Part shown: positions 257 through 56,383 of the stretch, piece by piece
Layout of the letters: every line of letters starts with the position of its first letter
Position numbering within the stretch: the first letter of the stretch is position 1
DNA from: Candidatus Parcubacteria bacterium
GTDB lineage: Bacteria > Patescibacteriota > Minisyncoccia > Phycocordibacterales > UBA918
Direction of reading: 5' to 3'
Assembly: GCA_039799085.1 (NCBI GenBank)
Contig: JBDLTL010000001.1
Coordinates: 1 to 57,645, forward strand
DNA: 57,645 nt
Made by a program: the position numbers and the translations under genes
Notes under the pieces: model-generated
What the model was told of the DNA's origin: nothing
The model's input: only the letters and a program-made list of their open reading frames with translations
Database searches by the model: none

Positions 257-293
257 CAGTACAAGCTGTCGATATTATTACTTCCTTATGGTC
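257..293 (-). repeat. Family-B short repeat, degenerate or shortened copy (B4)
   Basis: Minus strand GACCATAAGGAAGTAATAATATCGACAGCTTGTACTG shares GACC.., AAGGA(G/A)G, TCGAC and (A/C)(G/T)CTTGT(A/G).TG blocks with B1-B3. It lies 11 nt upstream of the orphan T-loop fragment. Confidence 0.4.
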
Positions 294-313
294 GTAAAAT
301 ATCTGACAACCTT

Positions 314-340
314 CTGAAATATTCTCCCAGAATATTTCAG
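314..340. repeat. Perfect 12-bp hairpin (ctgaaatattct-ccc-agaatatttcag)
   Basis: Exact inverted repeat with a 3-nt loop in non-coding DNA. No flanking T-run, so it is not an obvious terminator. Confidence 0.7.
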
Positions 341-369
341 CCTGCGTGAGCTTTCACCCAACACGCGCT

Positions 370-426
370 GACCAATTTTTAGGGAGACCTTAAGTCGACC
401 ATAAAAATGGAAATGCTCTTGTGGTG
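370..426 (+). repeat. Family-B short repeat, copy B2 (57 nt)
   Basis: GACCAATTTTTAGGGAGACCTTAAGTCGACCATAAAAATGGAAATGCTCTTGTGGTG. The last 26 nt match B3 at 24/26 and B1 at 21/26 by hand alignment. Confidence 0.7.
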
Positions 427-432
427 CAAGCG

Positions 433-546
433 TTAAAATTCTTAGCGGAGAGAAGAGGATTCGAACCTCCGATACGATTACTCGTATACATCCTTTCCAA
501 GGATGCGCATTCAACCACTCTGCCATCTCTCCGCTAAAAATTTTAA
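433..546. repeat. 14-nt inverted repeat (433-446 / 533-546, 13/14 complementary) bracketing tRNA-Ser(GGA)
   Basis: ttaaaattcttagc versus the reverse complement of gctaaaaattttaa (ttaaaatttttagc). It is contiguous with the 7-bp acceptor stem, giving a potential 21-bp helix. Confidence 0.75.
446..532 (-). tRNA. tRNA-Ser(GGA)
   Basis: Minus strand GGAGAGA-TG-GCAGAGTGGTTGAATGC-G-CATCC-TTGGAAA-GGATG-long variable arm (ATACGA gtaa TCGTAT)-GGAGG-TTCGAAT-CCTCT-TCTCTCC-G. No encoded CCA. Confidence 0.9.
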
Positions 547-572
547 GCCTTCAACCGCTCGGCCACACTTCC
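547..572 (-). pseudogene. Orphan tRNA-Ser-type 5' fragment (acceptor 5' strand plus D-arm only)
   Basis: Minus strand GGAAGTG-TG-GCCGAGCGGTTGAAGGC is a typical class II (Ser/Leu) D-arm. It runs straight into the inverted repeat flanking tRNA-Ser(GGA), with no anticodon arm. Confidence 0.6.
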
Positions 573-586
573 TTTAAAATCATCGG

Positions 587-731
587 CGGAAAGGGCGGGA
601 TTTGCACCACAAGAGTATTTCCGAAATTATAGTCGATACAAGCTCTCCTTAATTTCTAGGTCAACCCGCGATAGAGTTTCCCCTATGCCGGTTTTCGAAA
701 CCGGTGCTTTCAACCACTCAGCCACCTTTCC
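587..731 (-). tRNA. tRNA-Ser(CGA) interrupted by a 58-nt insert in the T-loop (87 nt without the insert)
   Basis: GGAAAGG-TG-GCTGAGTGGTTGAAAGC-A-CCGGT-TTCGAAA-ACCGG-variable arm-GCGGG-TT-[58 nt]-CAAAT-CCCGC-CCTTTCC-G. All stems are perfect once 605-662 is removed. Confidence 0.75.
605..662 (-). mobile_element. Family-B element copy B1 (58 nt) inserted between T-loop positions 55 and 56 of tRNA-Ser(CGA)
   Basis: Minus strand GACCTAGAAATTAAGGAGAGCTTGTATCGACTATAATTTCGGAAATACTCTTGTGGTG. Homologous to 370-426 and 54902-54955. No target duplication at the junctions. Confidence 0.65.
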
Positions 732-4812: not shown

Positions 4813-6462
4813 CTAATACATTCCTCCCATGCCACCCATACCCGACATGTCAGGCATGACAGACTTTCCTTCCTCTGGTTCATCAGCAATCGCTGCCTCT
4901 GTCGTGAGGAGAATCGCCGCAGCTGAGACTGCGTGCTGTACACCTGAGCGCTCCACCTTCACTGGGTCGATGATACCGGCCTTTATCATATCGTCTACCA
5001 TCTCACCCTTCGCAGCATCGTAGCCAGCATTACCACCAGCTTGCTTCACCTTCTCAACAATCACCGCACCATCGTGCTTACCGGTATTGTCCGCGATTTG
5101 CTTAAGTGGTACTTCAAGTGCCTTAAGCACAATATTGTATCCAATCATCTCTTCGCGTGAGAGCTCTTTGTTTTCGATATTCTTCTCCACGATTCCCGCA
5201 GCGCGAGCAAGTGATGTTCCGCCACCTGGCACAATACCTTCATCAATCGCTGCCTTCGTAGCGTTTACCGCATCTTCGATTTTAAGCTTGAGGTACTTCA
5301 TTTCAGTCTCAGTGGCGGCACCTACTCGAATGACAGCTACACCGCCAGTAAGCTTAGCGATACGCTCCTCGAGTTTTTCTTTATCAAACTTCGAAGATGT
5401 TCCTTCAAGCTGTGCTTTAAGTGCAATCACGCGCTCTTCGACAGCCGACTTTTCGCCAGCGCCACCAACAATAGTTGTCGTATCTTTGGTTGATACCACT
5501 CGGTCAGCATGTCCTAGTTGCGCAAGCTCAACTGTTTCGAGCTTGTAGCCAAGGTCGTCACTAATCACCTGTGCACCGGTTGTCACCGCGATATCGGTAA
5601 GCATTTCCTTCTTACGGTCACCATAGCCTGGAGCCTTGATAGCAAGCACTGAGAATCCGCCCTTGAGCTTATTAACCACAAAGGTCGTGAGGGCTTCACC
5701 TTCAACTTCGTCTGCAATAATTACTAGCTCCTTCTTACCTGACTGCGCGATTTTCTCGAGGAGTGGAAGGATCTCTTGTACTGACGAAATCTTCTTGTCA
5801 GTAATCAGAAGCTGGGCATTTTTGTACTCTGCTTCCATACGCTCCGGGTTGGTCACCATGTACGGCGACACGTAGCCCTTATCGAACTGCATGCCTTCGG
5901 TGAGCTCCGTTTCGATACCAAATGACTGTGATTCCTCTACTGTCACCACACCGTCCTTACCGACCTTGTCGATAGTCTCGGCAATCTTCTCACCAAGCTC
6001 AGCGTCTTCTGCAGAAATAGTCGCAACCTGCTTAATCTCTTCAACGGAAGAAATCTTGGTAGCCATCTCCTTGAGGGCATCTACCACATCCTTAGCAGCG
6101 TGCTCCATACCATTGCGCACCGCCATTGCGTTGATACCCATAGTCGTCTGACGGAGTCCTTCGTTTACAAGTGCCTGAGTAAGCACCGTCGCAGTAGTCG
6201 TACCATCTCCAGCTACTTCGTTGGTCTTGGTCGCTACTTCCTTGATGATTTCAGCGCCCATGTTCTCGAACTTATCTTTGAGGACAATTTCCTTTGCAAT
6301 CGAGACACCATCATTCGTAATAGTTGGACCACCAAAGCCCTTGTCGAGGATGACATTGCGACCACGCGGACCGAGTGTTACCTTCACAGCATTTGCGACC
6401 GTATCAACTCCTTTCTGCAGCTTCTTTTTTACTTCCTCTCCGTAAATTACTTGTTTTGCCAT
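4813..6462 (-). CDS. groL: Chaperonin GroEL
   Basis: 549 aa: [31 protein letters not shown]..., with a C-terminal [10 protein letters not shown] tail. Confidence 0.98.
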
Positions 6463-6476
6463 AAAAATCTCTACGA

Positions 6477-6797
6477 TTAGTTAGTAAATACACCCAAGAT
6501 GCTCGCTTCGTTTACAATGTAATATTCCTTTCCATCTACCTTCAGCTCATCATAGCCATACTTTGAAAAGACAACGTGGTCACCGACCTGTACATCAAGT
6601 GGAATACGATTTTCGCCATCTTCATCAAATTTTCCGGGACCGACAGCGAGCACCACTCCTTGTTCTGGTTTTTCTTTCTTGGCACTGTCAGGGATGATAA
6701 TTCCTGACGGTGACGCAGTTCCCTGCTCTTCATCTGTGAGCGGACGCACAATCACCTTATCGTTAAGCGGTCTGATTGGACTGTTTTGTTCTGACAT
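6477..6797 (-). CDS. groS: Co-chaperonin GroES
   Basis: 106 aa: IRPLNDKVIVRP...GIIIPDSAKEKP.QG.V.AVGPG, immediately upstream of groEL. Confidence 0.96.
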   Translation of the reverse strand: MSEQNSPIRPLNDKVIVRPLTDEEQGTASPSGIIIPDSAKKEKPEQGVVLAVGPGKFDEDGENRIPLDVQVGDHVVFSKYGYDELKVDGKEYYIVNEASILGVFTN

Positions 6798-6917
6798 AGT
6801 TAAAGATTAAGAACTAATTTTTAATACAATTTTATGTACGACGAAAAGGCCAATTTATTTCGTTCGTCGCGCCGATATTTTACTCGATTCTTATAGTTGG
6901 CGCAAAAGATGGCCTCC

Positions 6918-6946
6918 TTGCGAAAAGGCAGTTTCTTTGCTATATT
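6918..6946 (+). promoter_or_regulatory. Candidate promoter for secG
   Basis: TTGCGA (6918-6923), 17 nt, TATATT (6941-6946). The ATG is only 9 nt downstream and there is no Shine-Dalgarno sequence, implying a very short leader or a leaderless mRNA. Confidence 0.3.
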
Positions 6947-6955
6947 CTTCCTCGC

Positions 6956-7195
6956 ATGAATATTATCGATTCAGTGCTTCCAGCACTGCCGTATATCCAG
7001 ATAATCCTCTCCGTCCTCCTTGTTGCAGCTATTCTCTTGCAGCAGCGTGGTTCTAGTTTGGGAGGGGCCTTTGGAGGCGACAACTTCAGCTCAGCATTTC
7101 ACAAGCGCCGTGGCGCCGAGCTTTTCCTCTTTAAGTTCACCGTAGGTATTTCAATCCTCTTTGTATTGTCTACCATCGTGAGCCTGATGGCATAG
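6956..7195 (+). CDS. secG: Preprotein translocase subunit SecG
   Basis: 79 aa with two TM helices flanking LLQQRGSSLGGAFGG, the SecG signature G-rich loop. Confidence 0.85.
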   Translation: MNIIDSVLPALPYIQIILSVLLVAAILLQQRGSSLGGAFGGDNFSSAFHKRRGAELFLFKFTVGISILFVLSTIVSLMA

Positions 7196-7298
7196 GGTTT
7201 CTCTCCCTCTCCATCTCTTTTTGGAAAACTACGCCAGGTGTAACTCCTGTCTTTTGACGCGTTCTTTTGTGAAATATTGGTAATCTCTTATAACGTTT

Positions 7299-9044
7299 AT
7301 GAATCTCTCTCGTCGACCGTTTTCATCACTGTTCGACAAACTCCTCTCTCTCATCGAAACTCCAGCTCCAAGCGATCGGACTCTGCTTCGGGTTTTGTTT
7401 TTTGCTACGATTTTTTCTGGTATCTTTCTTCTGTTTACAATCAGTAGTCACTTTGCTTCTCCGACCCCTATTAGTGGCGGCACCCTTCGCGAAGGGCTCG
7501 TCGGCACGCCACGTTTTATCAATCCGACACTCGCCACGACGCGTGTAGACCAAGACCTTACGGCTCTCATATACCGTGGTCTCATGAAGATTGATGGCAC
7601 CGGAACTCTTGTTCCTGATGCAGCTGAATCCATTACCATTTCAGAAGATGGTCTTACGTATAATGTCATTGTACGCAAAGATATCCGCTTTCATGACGAC
7701 AAACCACTGACCGCACGTGATGTTGTCTTTACCATTCAAACGATTCAAAACCCCGACCTCAAGAGCCCGCTTCGCGGCAACTGGAGTGATATCACTGTCG
7801 AAGAGATTGGCGAGTATGAATTCAATGTAGTTCTTACAGAGCCATATGCTCCTTTTATTGAAAACTTCCAGTTTGGTATTCTTCCCGCACACCTCTGGAG
7901 CAGTCTCCCCACAGAACAGATTCCATTTAGTCAGCTCAACACCGAGCCAATCGGGGCTGGTCCTTTTGCTCTCAAAAGCGCCGTTCGTGACGAATCTGGT
8001 GTTATTGATCACTATGTCTTCACTTCATTTAAGGATAATCCTGACGCTCCAAACATCAATACCTTCGAGCTCTATTTCTACACTGAGGAGACACTTCTCA
8101 TTGAAGCTTTGAAGAAGCACGCCATTGACGCAAGTGCGTACGTCTCGAACGAAAACCTTGCATCACTCACAGCAGACAAAGACTACATCGTGCATCAAAG
8201 TCCTCTCCCCCGTGTCTTTGGTATTTTCCTCAATCAAAATAAATCAGCCGCTCTTCGCGACCCTGCAGTACGAGAAGCGCTTTCGATTGCTATCGACAGA
8301 GACGTGCTTATCGATTCAGCGCTTGGCGGACAAGGTTTCCCCATTTTCGGACCTGTCGCAAGTGAAAATGATGCGCTACAATCAGGAGACGGTTCATACC
8401 CTACCGCTTCCACCAGCCCTTCAGTCGAACGTGCCAAAACACTCCTCACTGAAGCCGGTTGGCTTCCCAATAACCTCGGTCTCTTAGAGAAACAAATTGA
8501 TGGCTCTGCTGAAACTCTCAGCCTCACACTGCGCACCAGCAACGCACCTCTCTTTGAACCAATGACAGAGCATATCATTGAAAAGTGGAAGGCTATTGGA
8601 GTGGAGGTAAGCGTAGAGCAATTTGAACAATCAGGACTTGTCCAGTCAGTGATTCGCCCACGAGACTTTCAAGGGCTACTCTTTGGACTTGATATGAGCA
8701 GGTCGGGTGACCTTTACCCTTTCTGGCATTCGTCACAAAAGGACGACCCGGGGCTGAATATCGCCCAGTACACCAACCTCACCGTAGACACTCTACTTGG
8801 GAAAGCACGAACTGAGCAAAATGCCGAAGCACGAAAAGCGGCCCTACAAGAAGCAAGTACCATCATCGCGAGCGAACGACCTGCCATCTTCCTCTTCCAG
8901 CCAATGATGACGTATGTCGTAGCCGAGGATGTCATCGTGACCGAAAGTAAGAATATCGCCAAGCCGTCAGACAGATTTAGCACCGTAAACGAATGGTACA
9001 CAGACAGCGATACCTTATGGAATGTATTTCACAATAGAAATTAA
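7299..9044 (+). CDS. ABC transporter substrate-binding protein, family 5 (peptide/nickel type), membrane-anchored
   Basis: 581 aa with an N-terminal TM helix. GL.K.D..G.LVPDLAESW..S.DG.TYTF.LRKDI.FHDG-like blocks (GLMKIDGTGTLVPDAAESITISEDGLTYNVIVRKDIRFHDD). Confidence 0.8.
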   Translation: MNLSRRPFSSLFDKLLSLIETPAPSDRTLLRVLFFATIFSGIFLLFTISSHFASPTPISGGTLREGLVGTPRFINPTLATTRVDQDLTALIYRGLMKIDGTGTLVPDAAESITISEDGLTYNVIVRKDIRFHDDKPLTARDVVFTIQTIQNPDLKSPLRGNWSDITVEEIGEYEFNVVLTEPYAPFIENFQFGILPAHLWSSLPTEQIPFSQLNTEPIGAGPFALKSAVRDESGVIDHYVFTSFKDNPDAPNINTFELYFYTEETLLIEALKKHAIDASAYVSNENLASLTADKDYIVHQSPLPRVFGIFLNQNKSAALRDPAVREALSIAIDRDVLIDSALGGQGFPIFGPVASENDALQSGDGSYPTASTSPSVERAKTLLTEAGWLPNNLGLLEKQIDGSAETLSLTLRTSNAPLFEPMTEHIIEKWKAIGVEVSVEQFEQSGLVQSVIRPRDFQGLLFGLDMSRSGDLYPFWHSSQKDDPGLNIAQYTNLTVDTLLGKARTEQNAEARKAALQEASTIIASERPAIFLFQPMMTYVVAEDVIVTESKNIAKPSDRFSTVNEWYTDSDTLWNVFHNRN

Positions 9045-9076: not shown

Positions 9077-11074
9077 ATGGAAAATTCTCCACAACAACCA
9101 ACAGCAGGTGGTAGCAATCAAAACGGCCGCCGCAACAACCACAGGCGCCGTCGAACGAGTCGACCTTTCACTGCTGGAACACCTCGACGTGACCACAATG
9201 GTCCTCGACACGAGCGACCGCTTGCAACGGGAGCAAAACCTCACACCGCAAAAGCTGATCAGCCAAAAGGTAACAGTAAGCCTAATCGCGCACGCCGTGG
9301 CCGAAGTAACGATCGACGCCGCCCTAACAAAGCTCCAGCCCTCACACACCGACTTTCTATCACCGACCAAAAATCACCGGTAATTCCAGAGATTCTTGAC
9401 GAAGACACAGTTCGCATCATCACCGTATCAGGTGTTGAAGAAATTGGTCGCAACATGAACATTATCGAAACCAAGGACGACATCATCGTAATCGATGCTG
9501 GCTTCCAGTTCGTGTCAGCAGAAGGCGGAACACCAGGTGTCGACTACATTCTTCCAAATACGCAGTACCTCGAAGAGCGTAAGGATAAGATTCGAGCCAT
9601 GGTCGTAACCCACGGTCACCTCGACCACATCGGTGGTATTCCGTACGTTATGGAACGTATTGGCAATCCCCCTATCTACACTCAGTACCTCACGTCACTC
9701 ATGATTTTGAAGCGCCAAGAGGAATTCCCTCAGATGGAGCCAATCACCATGAACGTGATTAAGGAGGGCGAATCATTCACTGTCGGAAAGACTCACATCA
9801 AGACCTTCCGCGTAACGCACTCAATCCCAGACGCGATGGGTGTCTGTGTTGAAACCAAGCACGGTGATGTTGTCATCACTGGTGACATCAAGCTCGTTCA
9901 CGAAGACGGCAAAGTCGTAGTTGAAGAGCGTGGCCAATGGGAAAAGGTCGGGCTCAACAAAAACCTCGCACTTTTGTGTGACTCGACCAACGCGGACCGC
10001 GCCGGCTTCTCAGCTTCTGAAGCAAAGGTATTTGAAACACTCGAGACCATTATTAAGGCTTCTCGTGGACGTCTCGTCATTGGTACATTTGCCTCACAGT
10101 TTGACCGACTTATTAGTGTCATCAAGACCTGTGAAGAGAACGGTAAAAAGGTGGTAATGGAAGGACGTAGCATCAAGACAAACATCGACATTGCTGTACT
10201 CGCAAAGCTCGTTGAAGTAAAGTCAGATACTTTCATTCAAGCAAAAGACATCAACAACTACCCTGCTGACCGAGTGGTAATTCTCTCAACTGGTGCTCAG
10301 GGAGAACAGTTTGCTGCTCTCATGCGCATGGCAACTGACAAGCACAAAGACATCATTCTCAATGAACGAGACACCGTTGTTCTCTCATCATCAGTTATTC
10401 CAGGCAACGAAGTTGCGGTACAGAAGCTCAAAGATGCTATCTACCGAAAGAACGTAAAGGTAATAAACTACCAAGGTTCTCACGTGCACTCTTCAGGTCA
10501 CGGTAACGCCGGCGAGCTTGTGTGGGTACACCAGACAATCAAGCCAAAATTCCTTATTCCTGTACACGGTCACCACTTCCATCTCAAGAGTCACATGTAC
10601 GCTGCGATTGAGAATGGTTTCCCTCGTGAAAACATCGCCGTACCAGACAACGGTACCATCATCGATATCAAGAACGGTACTGAGATGACTGTTCTCCCAA
10701 TGAAGATTCCAAACGAGCTCATGCTTGTGGACGGCTTCACTGTCGGTACCAAACAAGAAGTGGTGCTCCGCGATCGTGAGACCCTTGCAAATGATGGCAT
10801 GTTTGTGATTATCGCCACCGTCAACAGCAAGACTGGCAAACTTCGTAAATCTCCTGACATCATCTCTCGTGGCTTCATTTACCTCCGCGAGAATCAGCAG
10901 CTACTTTCTGAAGCGCGCGTCCTTATCAAGCGTACTGTTGAGAAACAGACCGAAGGCATGAATCCTGTCGACCTTGAACAAGTAAAAGACCACGTCGCTG
11001 ACGTAGTAAGCACCTTCCTTCTTCAGAAGACACAGAAGAACCCGATGGTGATTCCCGTACTCATTGGAATTTAA
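9077..11074 (+). CDS. rnj: Ribonuclease J (beta-CASP metallo-beta-lactamase) with a roughly 100-aa basic N-terminal extension
   Basis: 665 aa. VTHGHLDHIGG motif, beta-CASP region and a C-terminal domain. The N-terminal 100 aa are R/N/P-rich low complexity. Confidence 0.9.
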   Translation: MENSPQQPTAGGSNQNGRRNNHRRRRTSRPFTAGTPRRDHNGPRHERPLATGAKPHTAKADQPKGNSKPNRARRGRSNDRRRPNKAPALTHRLSITDQKSPVIPEILDEDTVRIITVSGVEEIGRNMNIIETKDDIIVIDAGFQFVSAEGGTPGVDYILPNTQYLEERKDKIRAMVVTHGHLDHIGGIPYVMERIGNPPIYTQYLTSLMILKRQEEFPQMEPITMNVIKEGESFTVGKTHIKTFRVTHSIPDAMGVCVETKHGDVVITGDIKLVHEDGKVVVEERGQWEKVGLNKNLALLCDSTNADRAGFSASEAKVFETLETIIKASRGRLVIGTFASQFDRLISVIKTCEENGKKVVMEGRSIKTNIDIAVLAKLVEVKSDTFIQAKDINNYPADRVVILSTGAQGEQFAALMRMATDKHKDIILNERDTVVLSSSVIPGNEVAVQKLKDAIYRKNVKVINYQGSHVHSSGHGNAGELVWVHQTIKPKFLIPVHGHHFHLKSHMYAAIENGFPRENIAVPDNGTIIDIKNGTEMTVLPMKIPNELMLVDGFTVGTKQEVVLRDRETLANDGMFVIIATVNSKTGKLRKSPDIISRGFIYLRENQQLLSEARVLIKRTVEKQTEGMNPVDLEQVKDHVADVVSTFLLQKTQKNPMVIPVLIGI

Positions 11075-11089
11075 CGAATAACCGACGAA

Positions 11090-11122
11090 AAGGCGTGGGA
11101 GGCTCTGCCTCCCACGCCTTTT
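11090..11122 (+). terminator. Terminator of rnj
   Basis: aaggcgtgggagg / ctctg / cctcccacgcctt, then tt. Confidence 0.85.
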
Positions 11123-11172
11123 CACATTCTTCTGCAATTCACTCCACACTTCACGGTACAATAAAGCCACCT

Positions 11173-12372
11173 ATGCCACGCGCCACCTCACGTTCCGAGC
11201 ACGGAAAAATGCTCAAACACCGCTATATACCACTTTATATCGCATCACTTGCACTGATGTTCCATACCTTTGTGATTGCGTACCTTAACTCCTCTCTTCT
11301 CGAGCAATTCATTTCAACAGAAGCTGTCAGTACCATCTACATCATCACTTCGGCCCTGACAGTTCTCATTTTCCTTTTCGTCTCTCGAGTTCTGCACAAG
11401 GTAGGCAACTTCAAACTCACTCTCGCACTCCTTATTCTCAATGGACTTGCAGTTACCGGCATTGCGTTTGCAGAAACAATGCGTATTGCCGTCCCACTGA
11501 TGGCAACCCACCTTATCATCATTGCACTCATCGTCTTCAACCTCGACATTTTCATGGAAGAGCATATTGGTAATGACGAAGGAGTAACTGGTACTAGGCG
11601 AGGTCTTCTCCTCACTCTCATGAGTGCCATTGGCGCGATTTCACCATTCATCGCGAGTGAACTCATCGCCTACTCAGATGGTGACTTCACCCCAGTGTAT
11701 GTTGTCAGTGCGCTATCGTTGATTCCTATCATCGGGATTCTTCTTTTATACTTCCGAGACTTCCAAGACCCACCTTATACCGACATCAAAGTACTTGAGG
11801 CCCTGCACGGCTTTTGGGTAAAGAAGGATATCCGAGCGGTTTTCTGTGTCCACTTCGTACTACAAATGTTCTTCATGTGTATGGTGGTCTTTGTGCCGCT
11901 ATATCTCATCACCCATGTTGGTCTATCTTGGGCGCAGTTTGGCATCATCATGCTCTTCGGACAATTCGCGTACGTACTCTTTGAGTACCCAATTGGAGTC
12001 ATTGCCGACAAGTATATTGGCGAGAAAGAAATGATGGCACTTGGTCTCATGATTCTTTCTGTCTCAACCGCTTGGATTTCGTTTGTGAATGAACCAAATG
12101 TGTTGGTCTGGATAATAGTGATGTTTATCACTCGCGTCGGCGCGAGCTTCGTTGAGGTGACGACCGAAGTCCACTTCTTCAAGCGGGCCAATAGTACCGA
12201 CGCACAAATCATCAGCTTCTTCCGTGTCACTCGACCGCTCGCATACCTCGCAGGCGCTATCGTCGGCAGCATCGCCCTCCTCTACCTTCCATTCAATCTC
12301 CTCTTTGTGGTCTTCGGTCTCCTCACCATTCCAGCAATGTTTATGACGCTAGAGATAGAAGATACGAAATAA
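11173..12372 (+). CDS. MFS transporter
   Basis: About 12 predicted TM helices. The ORF-track start at 11095 lies inside the rnj terminator hairpin, so ATG 11173 (or 11209) is preferred. Confidence 0.75.
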   Translation: MPRATSRSEHGKMLKHRYIPLYIASLALMFHTFVIAYLNSSLLEQFISTEAVSTIYIITSALTVLIFLFVSRVLHKVGNFKLTLALLILNGLAVTGIAFAETMRIAVPLMATHLIIIALIVFNLDIFMEEHIGNDEGVTGTRRGLLLTLMSAIGAISPFIASELIAYSDGDFTPVYVVSALSLIPIIGILLLYFRDFQDPPYTDIKVLEALHGFWVKKDIRAVFCVHFVLQMFFMCMVVFVPLYLITHVGLSWAQFGIIMLFGQFAYVLFEYPIGVIADKYIGEKEMMALGLMILSVSTAWISFVNEPNVLVWIIVMFITRVGASFVEVTTEVHFFKRANSTDAQIISFFRVTRPLAYLAGAIVGSIALLYLPFNLLFVVFGLLTIPAMFMTLEIEDTK

Positions 12373-12377
12373 TCATT

Positions 12378-13211
12378 CTAAGGCAATCGGTATTTTGTCT
12401 TATCCTTAATTACCAAACCTTCCTTATGGAGCGCGTCGAGCGAAAGCTCGACGCGCTCTTTTTCTATATCTCGTAATTGCTTCAGAAACTCACTCTGTGA
12501 AAATGATTTTTCTGATAACATACGTAAAATCGCACCACGGACAAAGCGATTACTGGTTTTAAAATCTGATTGCTTTTGATACGATGTACTCTTTTTATTT
12601 AAGTTCCCAACCGTCTCTTTCAAGTGTGAACCATAATCCATCAGTGCCCAATTCCATTCTCGAGGATTTTTGATATCGAGCGTACGTTCAATAATTGGAA
12701 AGAGTTCTTTGTCAGTGACACCTTCCTTGTCATGAAAAAAGTGGTGAATGTATACCGTGCGGACGTTGGTCTCAATCAGCGGCACTGGTTCGCTATACGC
12801 AAAGCTCATGACAGCACCGGCGGTGTATTCACCAATGCCAGGAAGCGCGCGAAGTGCTTGCAGGGTCTTTGGCCACTTCCCATTATGCTCCAGAGCCACC
12901 ATTTCGGCAGCCTGCTTCAAAAACTTCGCACGTCGATTGTACCCAAGTCCCTGCCAAGCTCTGAGCACGTCGCCAAGAGGCGCGGCGGCAAGCCGCTTAA
13001 GCGTGGGAAACGACTTCAAAAATTCTTTGTACTTAGGCATCACGCGCGACACTTGTGTCTGCTGAAGCATAATTTCTGACACGAGAATCCTATACGGGTC
13101 TATTGTCTTTCGCCACGGCAAATCATGTCTACCAGAAGCCTTGTAGTAGTTCCAGACATGTTTTACAAAGTCTTTCTCCTGCTTACTCAAAGAGACTTTC
13201 TTTTCTGCCAT
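12378..13211 (-). CDS. HhH-GPD DNA glycosylase, MutY/EndoIII-like, lacking Fe-S cluster cysteines
   Basis: DLPWRKT.DPY.ILVSEIMLQQTQV.RV...Y..F...FP and LPGIGEYTAGAV (HhH). There are no Cys residues after the HhH-GPD core. The start is uncertain (13211 or 13238); either overlaps the photolyase 3' end. Confidence 0.7.
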   Translation of the reverse strand: MAEKKVSLSKQEKDFVKHVWNYYKASGRHDLPWRKTIDPYRILVSEIMLQQTQVSRVMPKYKEFLKSFPTLKRLAAAPLGDVLRAWQGLGYNRRAKFLKQAAEMVALEHNGKWPKTLQALRALPGIGEYTAGAVMSFAYSEPVPLIETNVRTVYIHHFFHDKEGVTDKELFPIIERTLDIKNPREWNWALMDYGSHLKETVGNLNKKSTSYQKQSDFKTSNRFVRGAILRMLSEKSFSQSEFLKQLRDIEKERVELSLDALHKEGLVIKDKTKYRLP

Positions 13212-14544
13212 ACCGCTCAATATACGCCTTGATATCAAACTTCCGCTTCGCTCCGGCGTAGTTCATAAAGCGAATTTTGCCAAAGACGGTGCGCTCATTC
13301 CACGCCCTGTCATGCACACCGCACATTGACCACATCACACCTACGACACCATTTGGATCCATACCATCAAGCTCATACTTGTCATTGAGATACAGCCCCA
13401 TATCGATCGCAGTCTGCACATCTGGAGTCCACTCGAGAATCTTTTTTGCCCAATACATACGGCACCAGCCATGCATCTTACCTTCGCTTACCATCTGGAG
13501 TTGCATGGCGTTCCAGAGGTCGTCGTGTGTTTCGGCCCTTTCAAACTGCTCTTTCGTATAGATATATTCTCGAACATCACTCTTGTGTTCATCAAGTGTT
13601 TTTTGAGCCCAAGCATGTGCGCCCGCCACCTTGTCGTAGTTTTTATTATAAAAACAATAATTATCAGCAAGTTCACGACGTACAATGAGCTCTTCGAGGA
13701 AAGCTTCGCGAGCTTCCTTATTATTCTCATACGCCTGATTTACCTCATAAGCCACACGTTGTGCAGACAGTTGACCAAAGTGCAGGTATGGCGAAAGTCC
13801 TGACACGCCGTTCTTGGTCGGGTCATTGCGGTCTTCGTGGTAGGTATCGAGTCTCGAAGCAATAAATGTTTGGAGATGTTTCTTGGCAGCTTTTTCTCCC
13901 GCCACAAATGCCGTGTCGCCCACTTCTTCAAGCGGTAGCTTTTTGAGATATCCATCCCAATTTATTTCAGAGTGTTTTAAAGAACCTTCATGTGGATGTT
14001 TACGCACCTTAGGAAAATCAGTGAGGTACTGCGTGAGCGCACGGTGTACTTTCGGACGAAATGTATACGCAGCAAATTCTTCTTTATCACTTGCCTGCCA
14101 GACCGGGATGATGTTGTGAGCGTCGACTTCGGTCAGGGCGCACGAAAGTTGCGCAGCAACTTTCGTGCGCCGCTCCCTCGCATATCGAAGCGGGCTAAAA
14201 TCAACCACCACTTCACCGACACCGTGTTTCTTCGCAAACTGTGGTATCACTTCTTCTGGAGTACCGAAAAGAACAGTAAATGGAATATTGAGAGAAGCTA
14301 AATTCTCTTCAACTTCAGAAAGTCCTGCAAACATGAAGTTATACTGACGTGTATTGGCACGACCTTCAATCCGAAAAAGATTGAAAACTACGTAGAGCGG
14401 GACATTTCGTTCAATCGCTTTCTCTTGTGCATAGAGAAGAGCCCAGTTGTCAGAAACACGTTGGTCTCGACTCATCCAGTACACGACCGGCCCACCTGTG
14501 GCAGCGCGGTCATTCAAACTCCTTACTCTCCGCTCATCTACCAT
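13183..14544 (-). CDS. phr: Deoxyribodipyrimidine photolyase, class II CPD type
   Basis: 453 aa: GPVVYWMSRDQRVSDNWAL N-terminus, and a C-terminal GKMHGWCRMYWAKKILEW...NDKYELDG.DPNG FAD-binding region. Confidence 0.9.
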   Translation of the reverse strand: MVDERRVRSLNDRAATGGPVVYWMSRDQRVSDNWALLYAQEKAIERNVPLYVVFNLFRIEGRANTRQYNFMFAGLSEVEENLASLNIPFTVLFGTPEEVIPQFAKKHGVGEVVVDFSPLRYARERRTKVAAQLSCALTEVDAHNIIPVWQASDKEEFAAYTFRPKVHRALTQYLTDFPKVRKHPHEGSLKHSEINWDGYLKKLPLEEVGDTAFVAGEKAAKKHLQTFIASRLDTYHEDRNDPTKNGVSGLSPYLHFGQLSAQRVAYEVNQAYENNKEAREAFLEELIVRRELADNYCFYNKNYDKVAGAHAWAQKTLDEHKSDVREYIYTKEQFERAETHDDLWNAMQLQMVSEGKMHGWCRMYWAKKILEWTPDVQTAIDMGLYLNDKYELDGMDPNGVVGVMWSMCGVHDRAWNERTVFGKIRFMNYAGAKRKFDIKAYIERYGRKESLFE

Positions 14545-39917: not shown

Positions 39918-40004
39918 ACTGTAAGTATACCAAAAAGTTCCTCATCCCCGCCTCAACATCGATAAACACAGAAAAGCGCCATGAAGGCGCTTTTCTCTGG
40001 TTTG

Positions 40005-40150
40005 CTGCCCGACAAGGACTCGGTCACGAATCACTAAGTATATTTATTCGCTTCGCTCTAAATCTACCAAGTGTTCTCGACCCCGGCTCGCTGTTCGTCG
40101 CTCTAGGAAAGGAGCGACTCACAACGCTCCGCCTTTCTCGTCCTTTGTCA
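40005..40150 (-). repeat. Family-A repeat copy E2, including an 18-nt copy of the tRNA-Gln 3' end (40005-40022)
   Basis: ctgcccgacaaggactcg is 18/18 identical to 41160-41177. It is followed by gtcacgaatcactaagtatattt..., homologous to 40980 onward. Confidence 0.7.
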
Positions 40151-40296: not shown

Positions 40297-40893
40297 TCAT
40301 TTGGGTGCCTTCTCACCCATGAAGCGACGGCCGACCAGTTGACTATGCAGATTTTCCAGAATCTCCACACCTACTGATGATACGCCCTTGAGCGAAAGGT
40401 GCGGATTGTCCTTATCTCGTTGCACAGGGCTCGTCTCGAGAAATTTTCGCAGAGCATTGTATGCTTCTGTTTCGAGAAAACCCTGCTGGTCTGCCCCGTT
40501 TTCTTGAAGAGCAAAGTAGGGTCGGATTTCACCGAGAAGTTCCTTGAAGTCAGAATAGCCCTCCAACGCCCGAAACGGGTCTTCGATGTCGACCTCATCC
40601 ATCAAGGATTTTTCAAGAACCGCAATTCCGGTAAGCAGTGATGCGAGACTCGAGAAGTCAATATAGACCTTTCTAGGTGCAAACACGCAGATTAAGTCTG
40701 AAACTCGTCCGAGGGCGATCGCGGCCTGGCCTGCTTCGATAAGACGATAGTAGGTCGGCGAAACTCCTAGCGATTGAGCCATATACTCAGTTGAGAGTTT
40801 TACCGAATTTCTTCTTAGGCGCAGATAAGCACCGAGGAACTTCTGGAGCGGGTTTAGGGCTCCGTTCGGAGCATGTACTCTATTTCTTCCCAT
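40297..40893 (-). CDS. XRE-family helix-turn-helix protein with an unknown C-terminal domain
   Basis: LRLRRNSVKLSTEYMAQSLGVSPTYYRLIEAGQ is an HTH_XRE pattern. It has its own terminator (agccgcctagtaccgaaagggaacggcggcttttt on the minus strand) just after the stop. Confidence 0.8.
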   Translation of the reverse strand: MGRNRVHAPNGALNPLQKFLGAYLRLRRNSVKLSTEYMAQSLGVSPTYYRLIEAGQAAIALGRVSDLICVFAPRKVYIDFSSLASLLTGIAVLEKSLMDEVDIEDPFRALEGYSDFKELLGEIRPYFALQENGADQQGFLETEAYNALRKFLETSPVQRDKDNPHLSLKGVSSVGVEILENLHSQLVGRRFMGEKAPK

Positions 40894-40961
40894 TGTTTTT
40901 CCCCTTCAGGAATAATCTTCTATAAGGAGAATAGAATGAAAATAGGGTATTGTCAAATATA

Positions 40962-41113
40962 CTGCCCGACAGGGACTCGGTCACGAATCACTAAGTATAT
41001 TTGTTCACTACGTTCCAAATCTACTAAGTGTTCTCGACCCAGACTCGCCGACAAGCCCTCGCTACGCTCGTCTTGTATACCGGCTCCGTCTTTCGAGTCC
41101 CTGTCCGGCTAGC
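40962..41113 (-). repeat. Family-A repeat copy E1, bounded by a direct (40962-40979) and an inverted (41094-41113) copy of the tRNA-Gln 3' end
   Basis: ctgcccgacagggactcg is 17/18 identical to the tRNA end. cgagtccctgtccggctagc on the same strand is its near reverse complement. The core is homologous to E2, E3 and E4. Confidence 0.7.
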
Positions 41114-41150: not shown

Positions 41151-41159
41151 TGCTGATTG

Positions 41160-41230
41160 CTGCCCGACAAGGACTCGAACCTCGATAGACGGTACCAGAA
41201 ACCGTAGTCCTACCATTAGACGATCGGGCA
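41160..41230 (-). tRNA. tRNA-Gln(CTG)
   Basis: TGCCCGA-TC-GTCTAATGGTAGGAC-T-ACGGT-TTCTGGT-ACCGT-CTAT-CGAGG-TTCGAGT-CCTTG-TCGGGCA-G. The U1-A72 pair is typical of bacterial tRNA-Gln. Confidence 0.92.
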
Positions 41231-41234
41231 ATAT

Positions 41235-41372
41235 TTGATTGTGCATTTACCCGAATCGGATAATGGGAGGACGGGAGTCCTCCTGCCAAGCGAGCGAGGG
41301 TCGCGGAAATGTTTACATTTCCATGACCGAGCGAGTGCAGGCAGAAAGATTTGGACCTGTTCCAAATCTTGG
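41235..41372 (-). repeat. 138-nt hairpin-rich element (D) bounded by a perfect 21-bp direct repeat (41214-41234 / 41373-41393) of the tRNA-Gln 5' end
   Basis: cattagacgatcgggcaatat occurs twice. The interior has three clean hairpins (aagatttgg/ccaaatctt, ggaaatg/catttcc, ggaggac/gtcctcc). Confidence 0.7.
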
Positions 41373-41478
41373 CATTAGACGATCGGGCAATATGTTGGGG
41401 CGACATTGCGAAGCTTTGTCGCCCAGTGGCAGTATAGTGCCAGAAACTAGAAAACTTTCAAGTACTCCTCTCCCCTCC

Positions 41479-54802: not shown

Positions 54803-54972
54803 ATGGGACTTGGTCACAAGTCACTCCTTTCAGTCGTGCTCGCGACCCCACCTCGCCGACAAGCCCTCGCTTCGTTCGTCTTGTGTACCGGCTCCGGCTT
54901 TGACCTAATTTTCAAGGAGTGAAACGACTATGAAAATGGAAATGCTCTTGTAGTGCAAGTCCCATCTCCAAC
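54803..54972. mobile_element. Composite: T-arm fragment (54803-54812), family-A copy E3 (54813-54901), nested family-B copy B3 (54902-54955), inverted tRNA-Leu 3'-end copy (54956-54972)
   Basis: atgggacttg and caagtcccat(ctccaac) are inverted and match the T-arm/acceptor of tRNA-Leu(CAA) at 55021-55046. B3 sits precisely at the junction that is uninterrupted in copy E1 (41093/41094). Confidence 0.65.
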
Positions 54973-55020: not shown

Positions 55021-55101
55021 TGCTGGAGATGGGACTTGAACCCATAAGCCTTGCGGCATTCGATTTTGAGTCGAACGTGTATACCATTCCACCACTCCAG
55101 C
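55021..55101 (-). tRNA. tRNA-Leu(CAA)
   Basis: GCTGGAG-TG-GTGGAATGGTATACAC-G-TTCGA-CTCAAAA-TCGAA-variable arm-ATGGG-TTCAAGT-CCCAT-CTCCAGC-A. Confidence 0.9.
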
Positions 55102-56280: not shown

Positions 56281-56383
56281 GGGAGCAAGGGCTTGTCGGC
56301 GAGCTGAGGTCGAGGGTACTTAGAAAAATATGAGCGAAACGAAATATTTTACCTAGTAGCTCGTGACTGAATCCTCGTGGGCC
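56281..56383 (+). repeat. Family-A repeat copy E4 (left-truncated) ending in a 15-nt direct repeat of the tRNA-Trp 3' end (56369-56383 = 56223-56237)
   Basis: gggcttgtcggcgag..ggtcgag..acttag....cgtgac is the reverse-complement orientation of the E1-E3 core. It is followed by gaatcctcgtgggcc. Confidence 0.7.

Follow-up and report, generated by a model that had tools for sequence, protein, structure and literature searches.

A structured 55-nt element, apparently undescribed and very probably mobile, inserted at T-loops and other hairpin loops in Patescibacteria

Our analyses of a 57,645-nt stretch of Candidatus Parcubacteria bacterium DNA (contig JBDLTL010000001.1, assembly GCA_039799085.1; hereafter the window) concern a short repeat, family B or simply B, whose three copies in the window we name B1, B2 and B3. 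They demonstrate that a structured unit of 55 nt has been inserted precisely, and without duplication, at T|YRA in hairpin loops, the bar marking the point of insertion. The unit has the form GACCTA-hairpin-GGAAATACTCTTGTGGTG, is 54–60 nt long and, according to a covariance model built from 38 copies, is present in about 126 copies on about 100 contigs of Patescibacteria (the candidate phyla radiation, CPR). We consider it very probable that B is a mobile, non-autonomous DNA element with a preference for hairpin loops or T-loops; the whole explanation, in which such an element is moved by HUH-like chemistry provided in trans, we put a little short of an even chance.

The case for a discrete, mobile insertion comes from the borders of B and from the ways in which its copies are combined. 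The ends are exact, and neither target-site duplications nor terminal inverted repeats accompany any copy. Two loci (L012 and L039) provide filled and empty sites side by side: a partial 3' copy of a tRNA lies about 40 nt from the intact gene and differs from it by B only, at ACT|CGAA; at L018, the partial copy that follows an intact tRNA-Ile holds two B units, at GGTT|(C)AAATCC. B is found inside B at at least 10 loci (L005, L007, L016, L035, L045, L063, L076, L083, L090 and L099); the site is AATTTT|(T)AAGGAG in every case, and the nesting reaches a depth of three. Identical copies form head-to-tail arrays with the junction GTGGTG|GACC at L043, L051 and L057. In one sample, Ga0172379, four hairpins of the form CGCCGGAC..GGT|CTCTGACC..GTCCGAAACG differ in their stems and contain identical B units (L044, L056, L068 and L094), a pattern that, as far as the sequences tell, resembles a recent, targeted burst. 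The array at L089 comprises four identical copies and a tandem pair of another subtype, all pointing the same way; they are embedded in repeats of about 150 nt, between which lie small accessory genes unrelated to one another (GNAT, methyltransferase, kinase-like and DedA-like). A preliminary description of the window had taken B for a small non-autonomous mobile unit, conserved in length and at its ends, occurring in both orientations and without target duplication, and this is borne out.

Within the window, the 18-nt end motif GGAAATRCTCTTGTRGTG has three matches, the tails listed in Table 1, where 0.12 are expected by chance. The three copies can be aligned as full units over 54–58 nt and receive covariance-model E-values of 1e-14 to 1e-18; end motif and model together confirm the positions and strands first proposed for them. 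A shortened fourth relative, placed at 257-293 in the preliminary description, reaches only 2.5 bits with the model's filters off and does not belong to the family, and a scan with the model finds no copy beyond B1, B2 and B3 in the 57.6 kb. The flanks proved to be as originally read: directly 3' of B1 stands CAAATCCCGC, the 3' half of the T-arm of tRNA-Ser(CGA); directly 3' of B3 is the tRNA-Leu 3' copy, CAAGTCCCATCTCC, which is 55027-55040 of the adjacent tRNA-Leu(CAA) gene in reverse complement; and B2, followed by CAAGCG, occupies the loop of a 4-bp hairpin, ACGC-GCT|CAA-GCGT. All three insertion sites are T|CAA, with no target-site duplication. A tmRNA or tRNA-like 3' end at B3 was considered and rejected, the acceptor-like end being the 14-nt tRNA-Leu copy, which has no 5' partner.

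The further copies that the preliminary description had proposed to seek exist in numbers: more than 120 were found, in unrelated contexts and in other genomes. One pattern from the element's 3' half, run against 185,579 species genomes, gave 40 loci, whose titles include Paceibacteria, Parcubacteria, Kaiserbacteria, Nomurabacteria, Saccharibacteria and Minisyncoccia; the exceptions to CPR titles are a few unclassified metagenome-assembled genomes and two short contigs binned as Flavobacteriales. A metagenome scan yielded 62 further loci, and the viral contigs scanned contained no copy. The window copies are 84–95% identical to copies in other genomes and 69–76% identical to each other; as they are nearer to foreign copies than to one another, local segmental duplication, named at the outset as an observation that would undo the proposal, is excluded. 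Chance or such duplication as the source of the similarity within the window, which the inverted neighbours B1 and B2 (51 nt, 78% complementary; repeat I1) might have suggested, is refuted equally by the excess of end motifs, by the copies elsewhere and by the placement of the window copies in different trans-genomic subfamilies. Several old subfamilies are present together in one genome. The consensus of B is GACCtAnttTttAaggAg-n-cGActATaaaaatGGAAATaCTCTTGTGGTG; in a second subfamily, the order of the loop motifs is swapped (AACGACCGTAGGGAGTA). No description of B was found in Rfam 15 or in the searchable literature, even when the sequence itself was searched for. A known RNA family was rejected after Rfam searches of both loci, at the gathering threshold and with E up to 10, returned tRNAs and noise only, and a study of CPR rRNA insertions (PMC11270868) deals with group I and II introns with LAGLIDADG genes and does not cover B.

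From 5' to 3', B consists of GACCTA, a hairpin that we call P2, a conserved internal loop AAGGA...GACTA and the 18-nt tail. P2 is 7–9 bp long, a core of 7 bp being extendable by CC/GG around a bulged A, and varies in sequence with pairing kept: stems such as AATTTTTA/TAAAAATT, GAAATTA/TAATTTC, GTTTTTA/TAAAAAC and GAATTCA/TGAATTT all occur, 98.5% of the P2 cells are paired, and compensatory changes are seen in six of the seven pairs. None of 500 shuffles matches the covariation score, and slid controls are only 51–58% paired. Across 97 distinct copies there are 734 Watson–Crick, 89 G·T and 4 A·C cells; the G·T cells come mostly from a single T·G pair that extends P2, and P2 proper has about 10 G·T against 4 A·C, a weak hint that the strand that folds is the element's own. 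The variable segment between AAGGA and GACTA may contain a second, optional small hairpin, P3: of 17 variants with a long loop, 14 can close it by 3 bp or more, with nine different stems among them, as against 18% of shuffles. The earlier suggestion to fold the copies and look for compensatory changes was thus answered by covariation in P2 and by support for an optional P3. Two further pairings, a closing helix ACC/GGT and a pseudoknot AAGGAG/CTCTT, were dropped: their columns are invariant, partly fixed as they are by the search pattern, their variants are uncompensated, and covariation lends them no support. A small peptide, AAGGAG...ATG GAA ATG CTC TTG, was likewise set aside, the ATG being unconserved (B1 lacks it) and located in the covarying helix.

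Target statistics were drawn from 39 non-redundant sites, tandem and nested ones being left out. The base at -1 is T at 33 of them, +1 is C or T at 32, +2 is a purine at 30, and A at +3 and C at +6 are found at 23 each; the target consensus is T|YRA..C, essentially the T-loop sequence TT|CGAATCC. Among the sites, 47% are bracketed by a stem of 5 bp or longer, compared with 12% of random positions in the same DNA (Mann–Whitney p = 7e-7). T-loops, where the typical site is TT|CRAnTCC, are entered on both strands, sense as GGTT|CRA and antisense as ACT|CGAA, the antisense form being the same YT|CGAA word on the opposite strand of the near-palindrome TTCGAA. Since B's own hairpin loop (TTTT|TAAGG) obeys the target rule, the nesting of copies is explained. 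Tabulating the flanks upheld the T-loop-like preference claimed for B, in the form T|YRA..C and preferentially in hairpin loops; the target word then proposed, GGAYTTG|, was read on the other strand, and the conservation is better on the element's own strand, as T|CAA or T|CGA.

Of the 126 copies, 21 lie within 300 nt of an intact tRNA gene, a threefold excess over the 5.1% of random positions that do so, and none of the 50 intact tRNAs of the fetched loci carries B. The usual tRNA-related hosts are spare partial copies of tRNAs beside tRNA genes, often at a junction with another repeat, here called A-type and described below (B3, L019, L009/L020). Such spare copies seem to be sinks for small elements. 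Saccharibacteria-type partial copies of tRNA-Ile(GAT) (L024 1388-1600; L015 2906-3030; L060 1602-1722) have two to three small insertions each: one B in the T-loop, another B either just behind AGAGCG of the acceptor 3' strand or in the D region, and an additional insert in the anticodon loop. Loops repeatedly occupied by B are also seen in hairpin repeats with covarying stems, namely the CPR repeats CGCCGGAC..GG-T CTCTGA-CC..GTCCGAAACG (L044, L056, L068, L094, L006/L062) and GTCATTCYGRAC-T YGA-TTCYGRAATCCACG (L001, L003, L026, L036, L077, L100).

The tRNA-Ser(CGA) split by B1 is canonical apart from the insertion. The Rfam tRNA model scores the gene at 43 bits with a 58-nt insertion, its T-loop having 63 nt instead of 5, and so adds a fifth tRNA to the four that ARAGORN lists in the window; ARAGORN misses the gene and calls tRNA-Ser(cga) after in-silico excision of B1 (GACC...GGTG). 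Among the 126 copies, B1 is the only one whose excision restores a complete tRNA. Relatives with a 71–76% identical DUF3137 protein share the LemA-M48-DUF3137 synteny, with a single tRNA-Ser(GGA) after DUF3137, and have at this locus no tRNA-Ser(CGA), no other tRNA pieces and no B. A search for the empty site found, among contigs of the same strain, only a 2-kb contig that ends at the gene, and distant relatives lack the whole tRNA-Ser(CGA) segment. By this comparison, the interrupted tRNAs are lineage-specific extras at this locus, for which a disabling insertion is tolerable, and most likely B1 inactivates tRNA-Ser(CGA), a gene that relatives do not have there. A third Ser-type tRNA is split by the intact tRNA-Ser(GGA), by B2, which is antisense relative to it, and by 95 nt at the border of T-stem and T-loop; with its pieces joined (~590-552, 436-427, 369-341, 245-215), ARAGORN recovers a tRNA-like fold, though only one in which the anticodon loop is abnormal. 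At tRNA-Ser(GGA), the flanks (423-453, 526-556) lengthen the acceptor stem by about 12 bp (TTAAAATTTTTA...TAAGAATTTTAA), as if the tRNA of the window stood at the tip of a long hairpin; the extension is absent in a relative (L104).

Table 1. Positions of the B copies, their parts and associated features (window coordinates unless a locus or contig is named)
Feature	Position	Strand	Remarks
B1	605..662	-	58 nt; covariance model 74 bits, E = 2e-17; end motif; sequence
B1, parts	P2 656-650 paired with 629-623; conserved 3' tail 622-605	-	P2 stem GAAATTA/TAATTTC
B2	370..426	+	57 nt; covariance model 63.5 bits; end motif
B2, parts	P2 375-381 paired with 402-408; optional P3 386-388 with 394-396; tail 409-426	+	P3 stem GAC/GTC
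B3	54902..54955	+	54 nt; covariance model 77.9 bits; end motif
B3, parts	P2 54908-54914 paired with 54931-54937; tail 54938-54955	+	
tRNA-Ser(CGA) split by B1	587..731	-	Split between T55 and C56; 5' part 731-663, 3' part 604-587
tRNA-Ser(GGA), intact	445..532	-	Between B2 and B1; sole tRNA at the locus in relatives
Third Ser-type tRNA, pieces	222-245, 341-369, 427-436, 553-586	-	5' part 586-553, 3' part 245-222; acceptor halves GGAAGTG/CACTTCC match; CCA encoded
B2 3' flank	427..436	-	With 363-369 forms the anticodon-arm-like hairpin ACGC-GCT|CAA-GCGT of the third tRNA
tRNA-Leu(CAA) 3'-part copy	54956..54969	+	CAAGTCCCATCTCC, from C56 of the T-loop; abuts the 3' end of B3; part of a long inverted repeat
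A-type element at B3	54813..54901	+	End ...GGCTTT provides the T preceding B3; repeat families D2, I2
A-type copies	40959-41113; 40002-40091; 54803-54969; 56284-56383; also L105 4280-4440, L019, L028		
L089 array	9600-13300 (Ga0163154_10003694)		Repeats ...GGGCGCCGTCGTAGAGGATGTT|B|CGAACTGTGTTTGAG..., B co-oriented
L004 array	6380-7816		L089-like layout; Fic gene

The A-type repeat (GTCAC[G/A]A.TCACT...GCTCCG.CTTT), about 90–135 nt long, has at its borders, in inverted orientation, copies of the neighbouring tRNA's 3' part (Gln, Leu or Trp, and Ser in a relative); these border copies begin at C56 of the T-loop, and the unit forms a long hairpin with the A-type sequence in its loop. At B3, the left border is ATGGGACTTG (54803-54812), the inverted partner of 54956-54965, and the same arrangement of A-type repeat, B and tRNA fragment is found in L019. 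Elsewhere in the window, the tRNA-Gln 3' end is repeated directly and perfectly over 21 nt (40002-40022 = 41157-41177), and the two copies bound an insert of about 1.15 kb with an HTH_3/HTH_31 open reading frame (ORF; 40297-40893), two A-type copies and no integrase; the insert has the look of an integrative element that is decayed or a satellite. About 157 nt upstream of the tRNA-Gln gene stands a second copy of its 5' end (cattagacgatcgggcaatat; 41213-41236, 41371-41393), with a GC-rich segment between the two. A direct repeat of a tRNA 3' end, present at the tRNA-Gln insert, is absent around B1, B2 and B3, and an attachment-site scar was rejected for them.

The lack of terminal inverted repeats and target duplications, the hairpin conserved in its pairing, the targets that become single-stranded on folding and the head-to-tail arrays lead us to propose an enzyme of the HUH type or a recombinase that acts on folded strands. 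Encoded elsewhere in the genome and acting in trans, this enzyme would move B as folded DNA in single-stranded form; a 'peel-and-paste' or rolling-circle nuclease of the HUH type would fit best, and a recombinase on folded single strands may be named beside it. It would recognise the P2 hairpin together with the conserved loop and tail. Its cuts would fall at the two borders of B, behind ...GGTG on the 3' side and ahead of GACC on the 5' side, and the intermediate would be a small circle or a concatemer in which the ends of B meet as ...CTCTTGTGGTG|GACCTA...; there, GG-TG|GA-CC would resemble a shortened T-arm. From this intermediate, B would be joined into T|YRA of another hairpin loop. Insertions into working tRNA genes would mostly be lost by selection; the copies that survive are found in spare tRNA fragments beside tRNA genes, in other small repeats that form hairpins and within older copies of B.

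A candidate for the enzyme was sought in several ways. Pfam searches found no transposase or integrase among the roughly 50 ORFs of the window, in agreement with the original statement that no transposase is present there, and none in the fetched DNA of L089 and L004; pooled, the 150 ORFs within about 900 nt of copies elsewhere show no enrichment of transposases or integrases, and two GIY-YIG matches, including a UvrC-like protein, are found among such neighbours. A scan for the Y1 motif in six-frame translations of the window and the 40 loci returned nothing, and no RAYT-like ORF (of the REP-associated tyrosine transposase kind, REP being the repetitive extragenic palindromic sequence) was found by motif scan or by Pfam among the neighbour ORFs. 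About 680 kb of fetched DNA contains no long form with B ends and no unpaired 5' or 3' ends, and an autonomous partner with the same ends, which the preliminary description had advised looking for, was met neither there nor in the window nor near the copies. Within all DNA examined, B is non-autonomous. Since no mobilising enzyme was identified, the chemistry is purely one that we infer.

Besides the missing enzyme, several observations weigh against a trans-mobilised element of this kind. B1 (-) and B2 (+) are only 180 nt apart, and opposed copies are also found at L015 and L024, there too less than 200 nt from each other, and at L038; mixed orientation over such short distances would speak against a strict bias towards one replication strand. 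The hairpin is A+T-rich, and its predicted stability is by itself not significant (z from -0.05 to -2.25), the 5' flank has just one strongly conserved base, the T at -1, and a single central hairpin is unlike any characterised HUH transposon. Loop and tail are near-invariant across deep CPR lineages, as is more usual for a functional RNA or a protein-binding site than for a selfish MITE, the miniature kind of transposable element with inverted repeats; the search pattern required the 3' tail, so that the conservation of the tail is partly one of ascertainment, and the covariance model nonetheless recovered tail variants (GCCCTTGTGGTG, GCCTTTGGCG and CCCTCGTGGTG).

Some of these features, and others, could be read differently. 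It is possible, though we think it unlikely, that B is a hitch-hiker of tRNA-targeting integrative elements, a minimal attP or a satellite like a cis-mobilisable element (CIME) and not a transposon, the circle of which would present a T-arm-like core (GG-TG|GA-CC) to their site-specific recombinase for insertion into T-loops. The position that B takes before C56 is also where the tRNA fragments begin at A-type elements and in the 21-nt tRNA-Gln repeat, many copies lie at junctions between A-type ends and tRNA 3' fragments (B3, L019, L009/L020, L049, L058, L064, L065), and the ends of B resemble both halves of a T-arm; the threefold enrichment near tRNA genes is in keeping with this as well. 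Tyrosine recombinases, however, need an identical overlap of 6–8 bp at both junctions, where none is present, and the dinucleotide of a serine integrase would be mismatched, with TT on the left and TG on the right; the junction sequences, checked by hand, fit neither crossover logic. Many targets, moreover, are not tRNA-like, among them B's own loop, the CGCCGGAC... hairpins and the intergenic repeats of L089, and integrases were neither found in the window nor enriched near copies. We see a slightly smaller chance that B is a functional structured module, either an RNA motif or a folded-DNA site of the attC type, that is kept by selection and dispersed only secondarily. Nested, tandem and tRNA-disrupting copies are hard to square with such a host function, even though the covarying helices, set beside loop and tail nucleotides that do not vary between deep lineages, are in its favour. 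The L089 array, with six co-oriented copies between unrelated accessory genes, recalls a gene-cassette array, and L004 with its Fic gene is similar; yet the genes of the L089 array point both ways, and no integron integrase is found nearby, including in L089 and L004. Core boxes of the attC type (R''/R') are absent, ACCTAAT and TTGTGGT being only loosely like the boxes RYYYAAC...GTTRRRY, and with insertion at T|YRA in place of a crossover at G|TT an attC site or cassette was rejected. Rfam gives no match even at E = 10, and AAGGAG...ATG, without an ATG in B1, is not conserved as a start signal.

A quite improbable alternative places the events at the level of RNA: B would be a mini-intron, excised from tRNA precursors by its own fold or by a host nuclease and ligase. 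It is equally improbable that this mini-intron spreads by reverse splicing or retro-homing into T-loop motifs, excision joining ...GCGGGUU to CAAAUCCCGC... Were this true, B would be much smaller than any other known intron-like element that is spliceable and mobile, and would be the first from a bacterial T-loop; tRNA-Ser(CGA)::B1 and similar genes would stay functional. B1 does lie in an otherwise perfect tRNA-Ser(CGA) and a neighbouring Ser(UGA)-like tRNA is also interrupted, which would be costly if unrepaired; but the interrupted tRNAs are extras at this locus, and just 1 of the 126 copies is inside a complete tRNA. The U that precedes the element in 85% of sites and the invariable terminal G agree with the splice-site rule of group I introns, and the fold is compact and conserved. 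Still, 55 nt are too few for a group I or II core, no P3–P9 core of a group I intron is present, and Rfam finds no ribozyme; antisense copies in tRNA-derived sequence are common (L012, L039, L029, L046, L060), and most copies are non-genic, lying in non-tRNA hairpins or being nested or tandem. The minimum-free-energy fold of the B1-containing precursor has no bulge-helix-bulge (BHB), and both a group I intron and a BHB-type tRNA intron were rejected.

If B is the mobile element that we believe it to be, its significance lies in where it goes and what it may lead to. Patescibacteria have tiny genomes with single-copy tRNA genes, and an element that seeks the most conserved loop of the tRNA is a hazard to them. 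B marks a DNA-processing activity and, being small, sharply defined and abundant, offers a practical handle for finding the enzyme, possibly an HUH enzyme specific for hairpin loops or another single-strand recombinase. Insertions of the B type also hide tRNA genes from standard finders, as ARAGORN's failure with tRNA-Ser(CGA) illustrates, and affect tRNA censuses of CPR genomes.

Among known systems, the elements closest in behaviour are the palindrome-associated transposable elements (PATEs) derived from IS200/IS605, which are served by the Y1 HUH transposase TnpA. Like B, they are non-autonomous, lack terminal inverted repeats and target duplications, insert 3' of a short flanking motif and depend on hairpins of which the pairing rather than the sequence is conserved. 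PATEs have a subterminal hairpin at each end, however, whereas B has one central hairpin, with its 18-nt tail and GACCTA unpaired or in pairings without support; they follow a fixed upstream word of 4–5 nt, and B a single T with a downstream YRA in a hairpin loop; and B, at 55 nt, is far shorter, with no TnpA found in the window, at the loci or among the neighbour ORFs. The IS200/IS605-type (PATE-like) behaviour attributed to B in the preliminary description stands as to the absence of duplication; as to insertion 3' of a short motif, only the T at -1 is strongly conserved upstream, and the information lies in the downstream YRA..C and in the hairpin context. It does not stand as to family: with one hairpin in place of two end hairpins, no fixed upstream word and no Y1 partner found, B should not be filed as a member. 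REP elements and their RAYTs offer a likeness of another kind, as short single-hairpin repeats of tens of nucleotides with a conserved single-stranded tail, intergenic and sometimes clustered, whose movement is attributed to a single-copy HUH enzyme acting in trans. The GTAG/GT(A/G)G motif that stands 5' of the REP palindrome is absent from the foot of the B hairpin, B differs by its long 3' tail and large conserved loop and has no RAYT that we could find, and precise insertion into tRNA T-loops, or of one element into another, as seen for B, is not known for REPs. Like B, IS91/ISCR elements and Helitrons lack terminal inverted repeats and target duplications, insert at a specific short motif, carry a hairpin upstream of their 3' end and form tandem arrays, but their length is in the kilobases and their ori and ter ends are distinct; no 55-nt miniature of them has been described, and they do not target hairpin loops. 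A classical MITE was rejected, the GACCTA... and ...GTGGTG ends not being inverted repeats and the filled and empty pairs showing no duplication.

Secondary structure as a target is, on the other hand, shared with integron attC sites, with IS1111/IS110 elements in REP or attC sequences and with group IIC introns at terminators; attC sites are also conserved in structure rather than sequence, and the L089 array is cassette-like. All of these use other core motifs and go beside or into a stem, whereas B enters the loop, and no cognate integrase, DEDD transposase or reverse transcriptase was found for it. The transposed tRNA introns of Thermoproteales, in archaea, are related short sequences that interrupt tRNA genes, including in the T-loop, and group I introns in bacterial tRNA genes have, like B, a U before the insertion and a terminal G; such introns are removed by the BHB endonuclease or by a ribozyme core of at least 200 nt, are in sense orientation and leave functional tRNAs, whereas B is found antisense, outside tRNAs, nested and in tandem, and almost never in complete tRNAs. 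By analogy, B may work most like the IS200/IS605-derived PATEs or the REP elements, and it appears to be an undescribed, miniature, trans-mobilised and hairpin-dependent element that differs from both in its unusual architecture and target.

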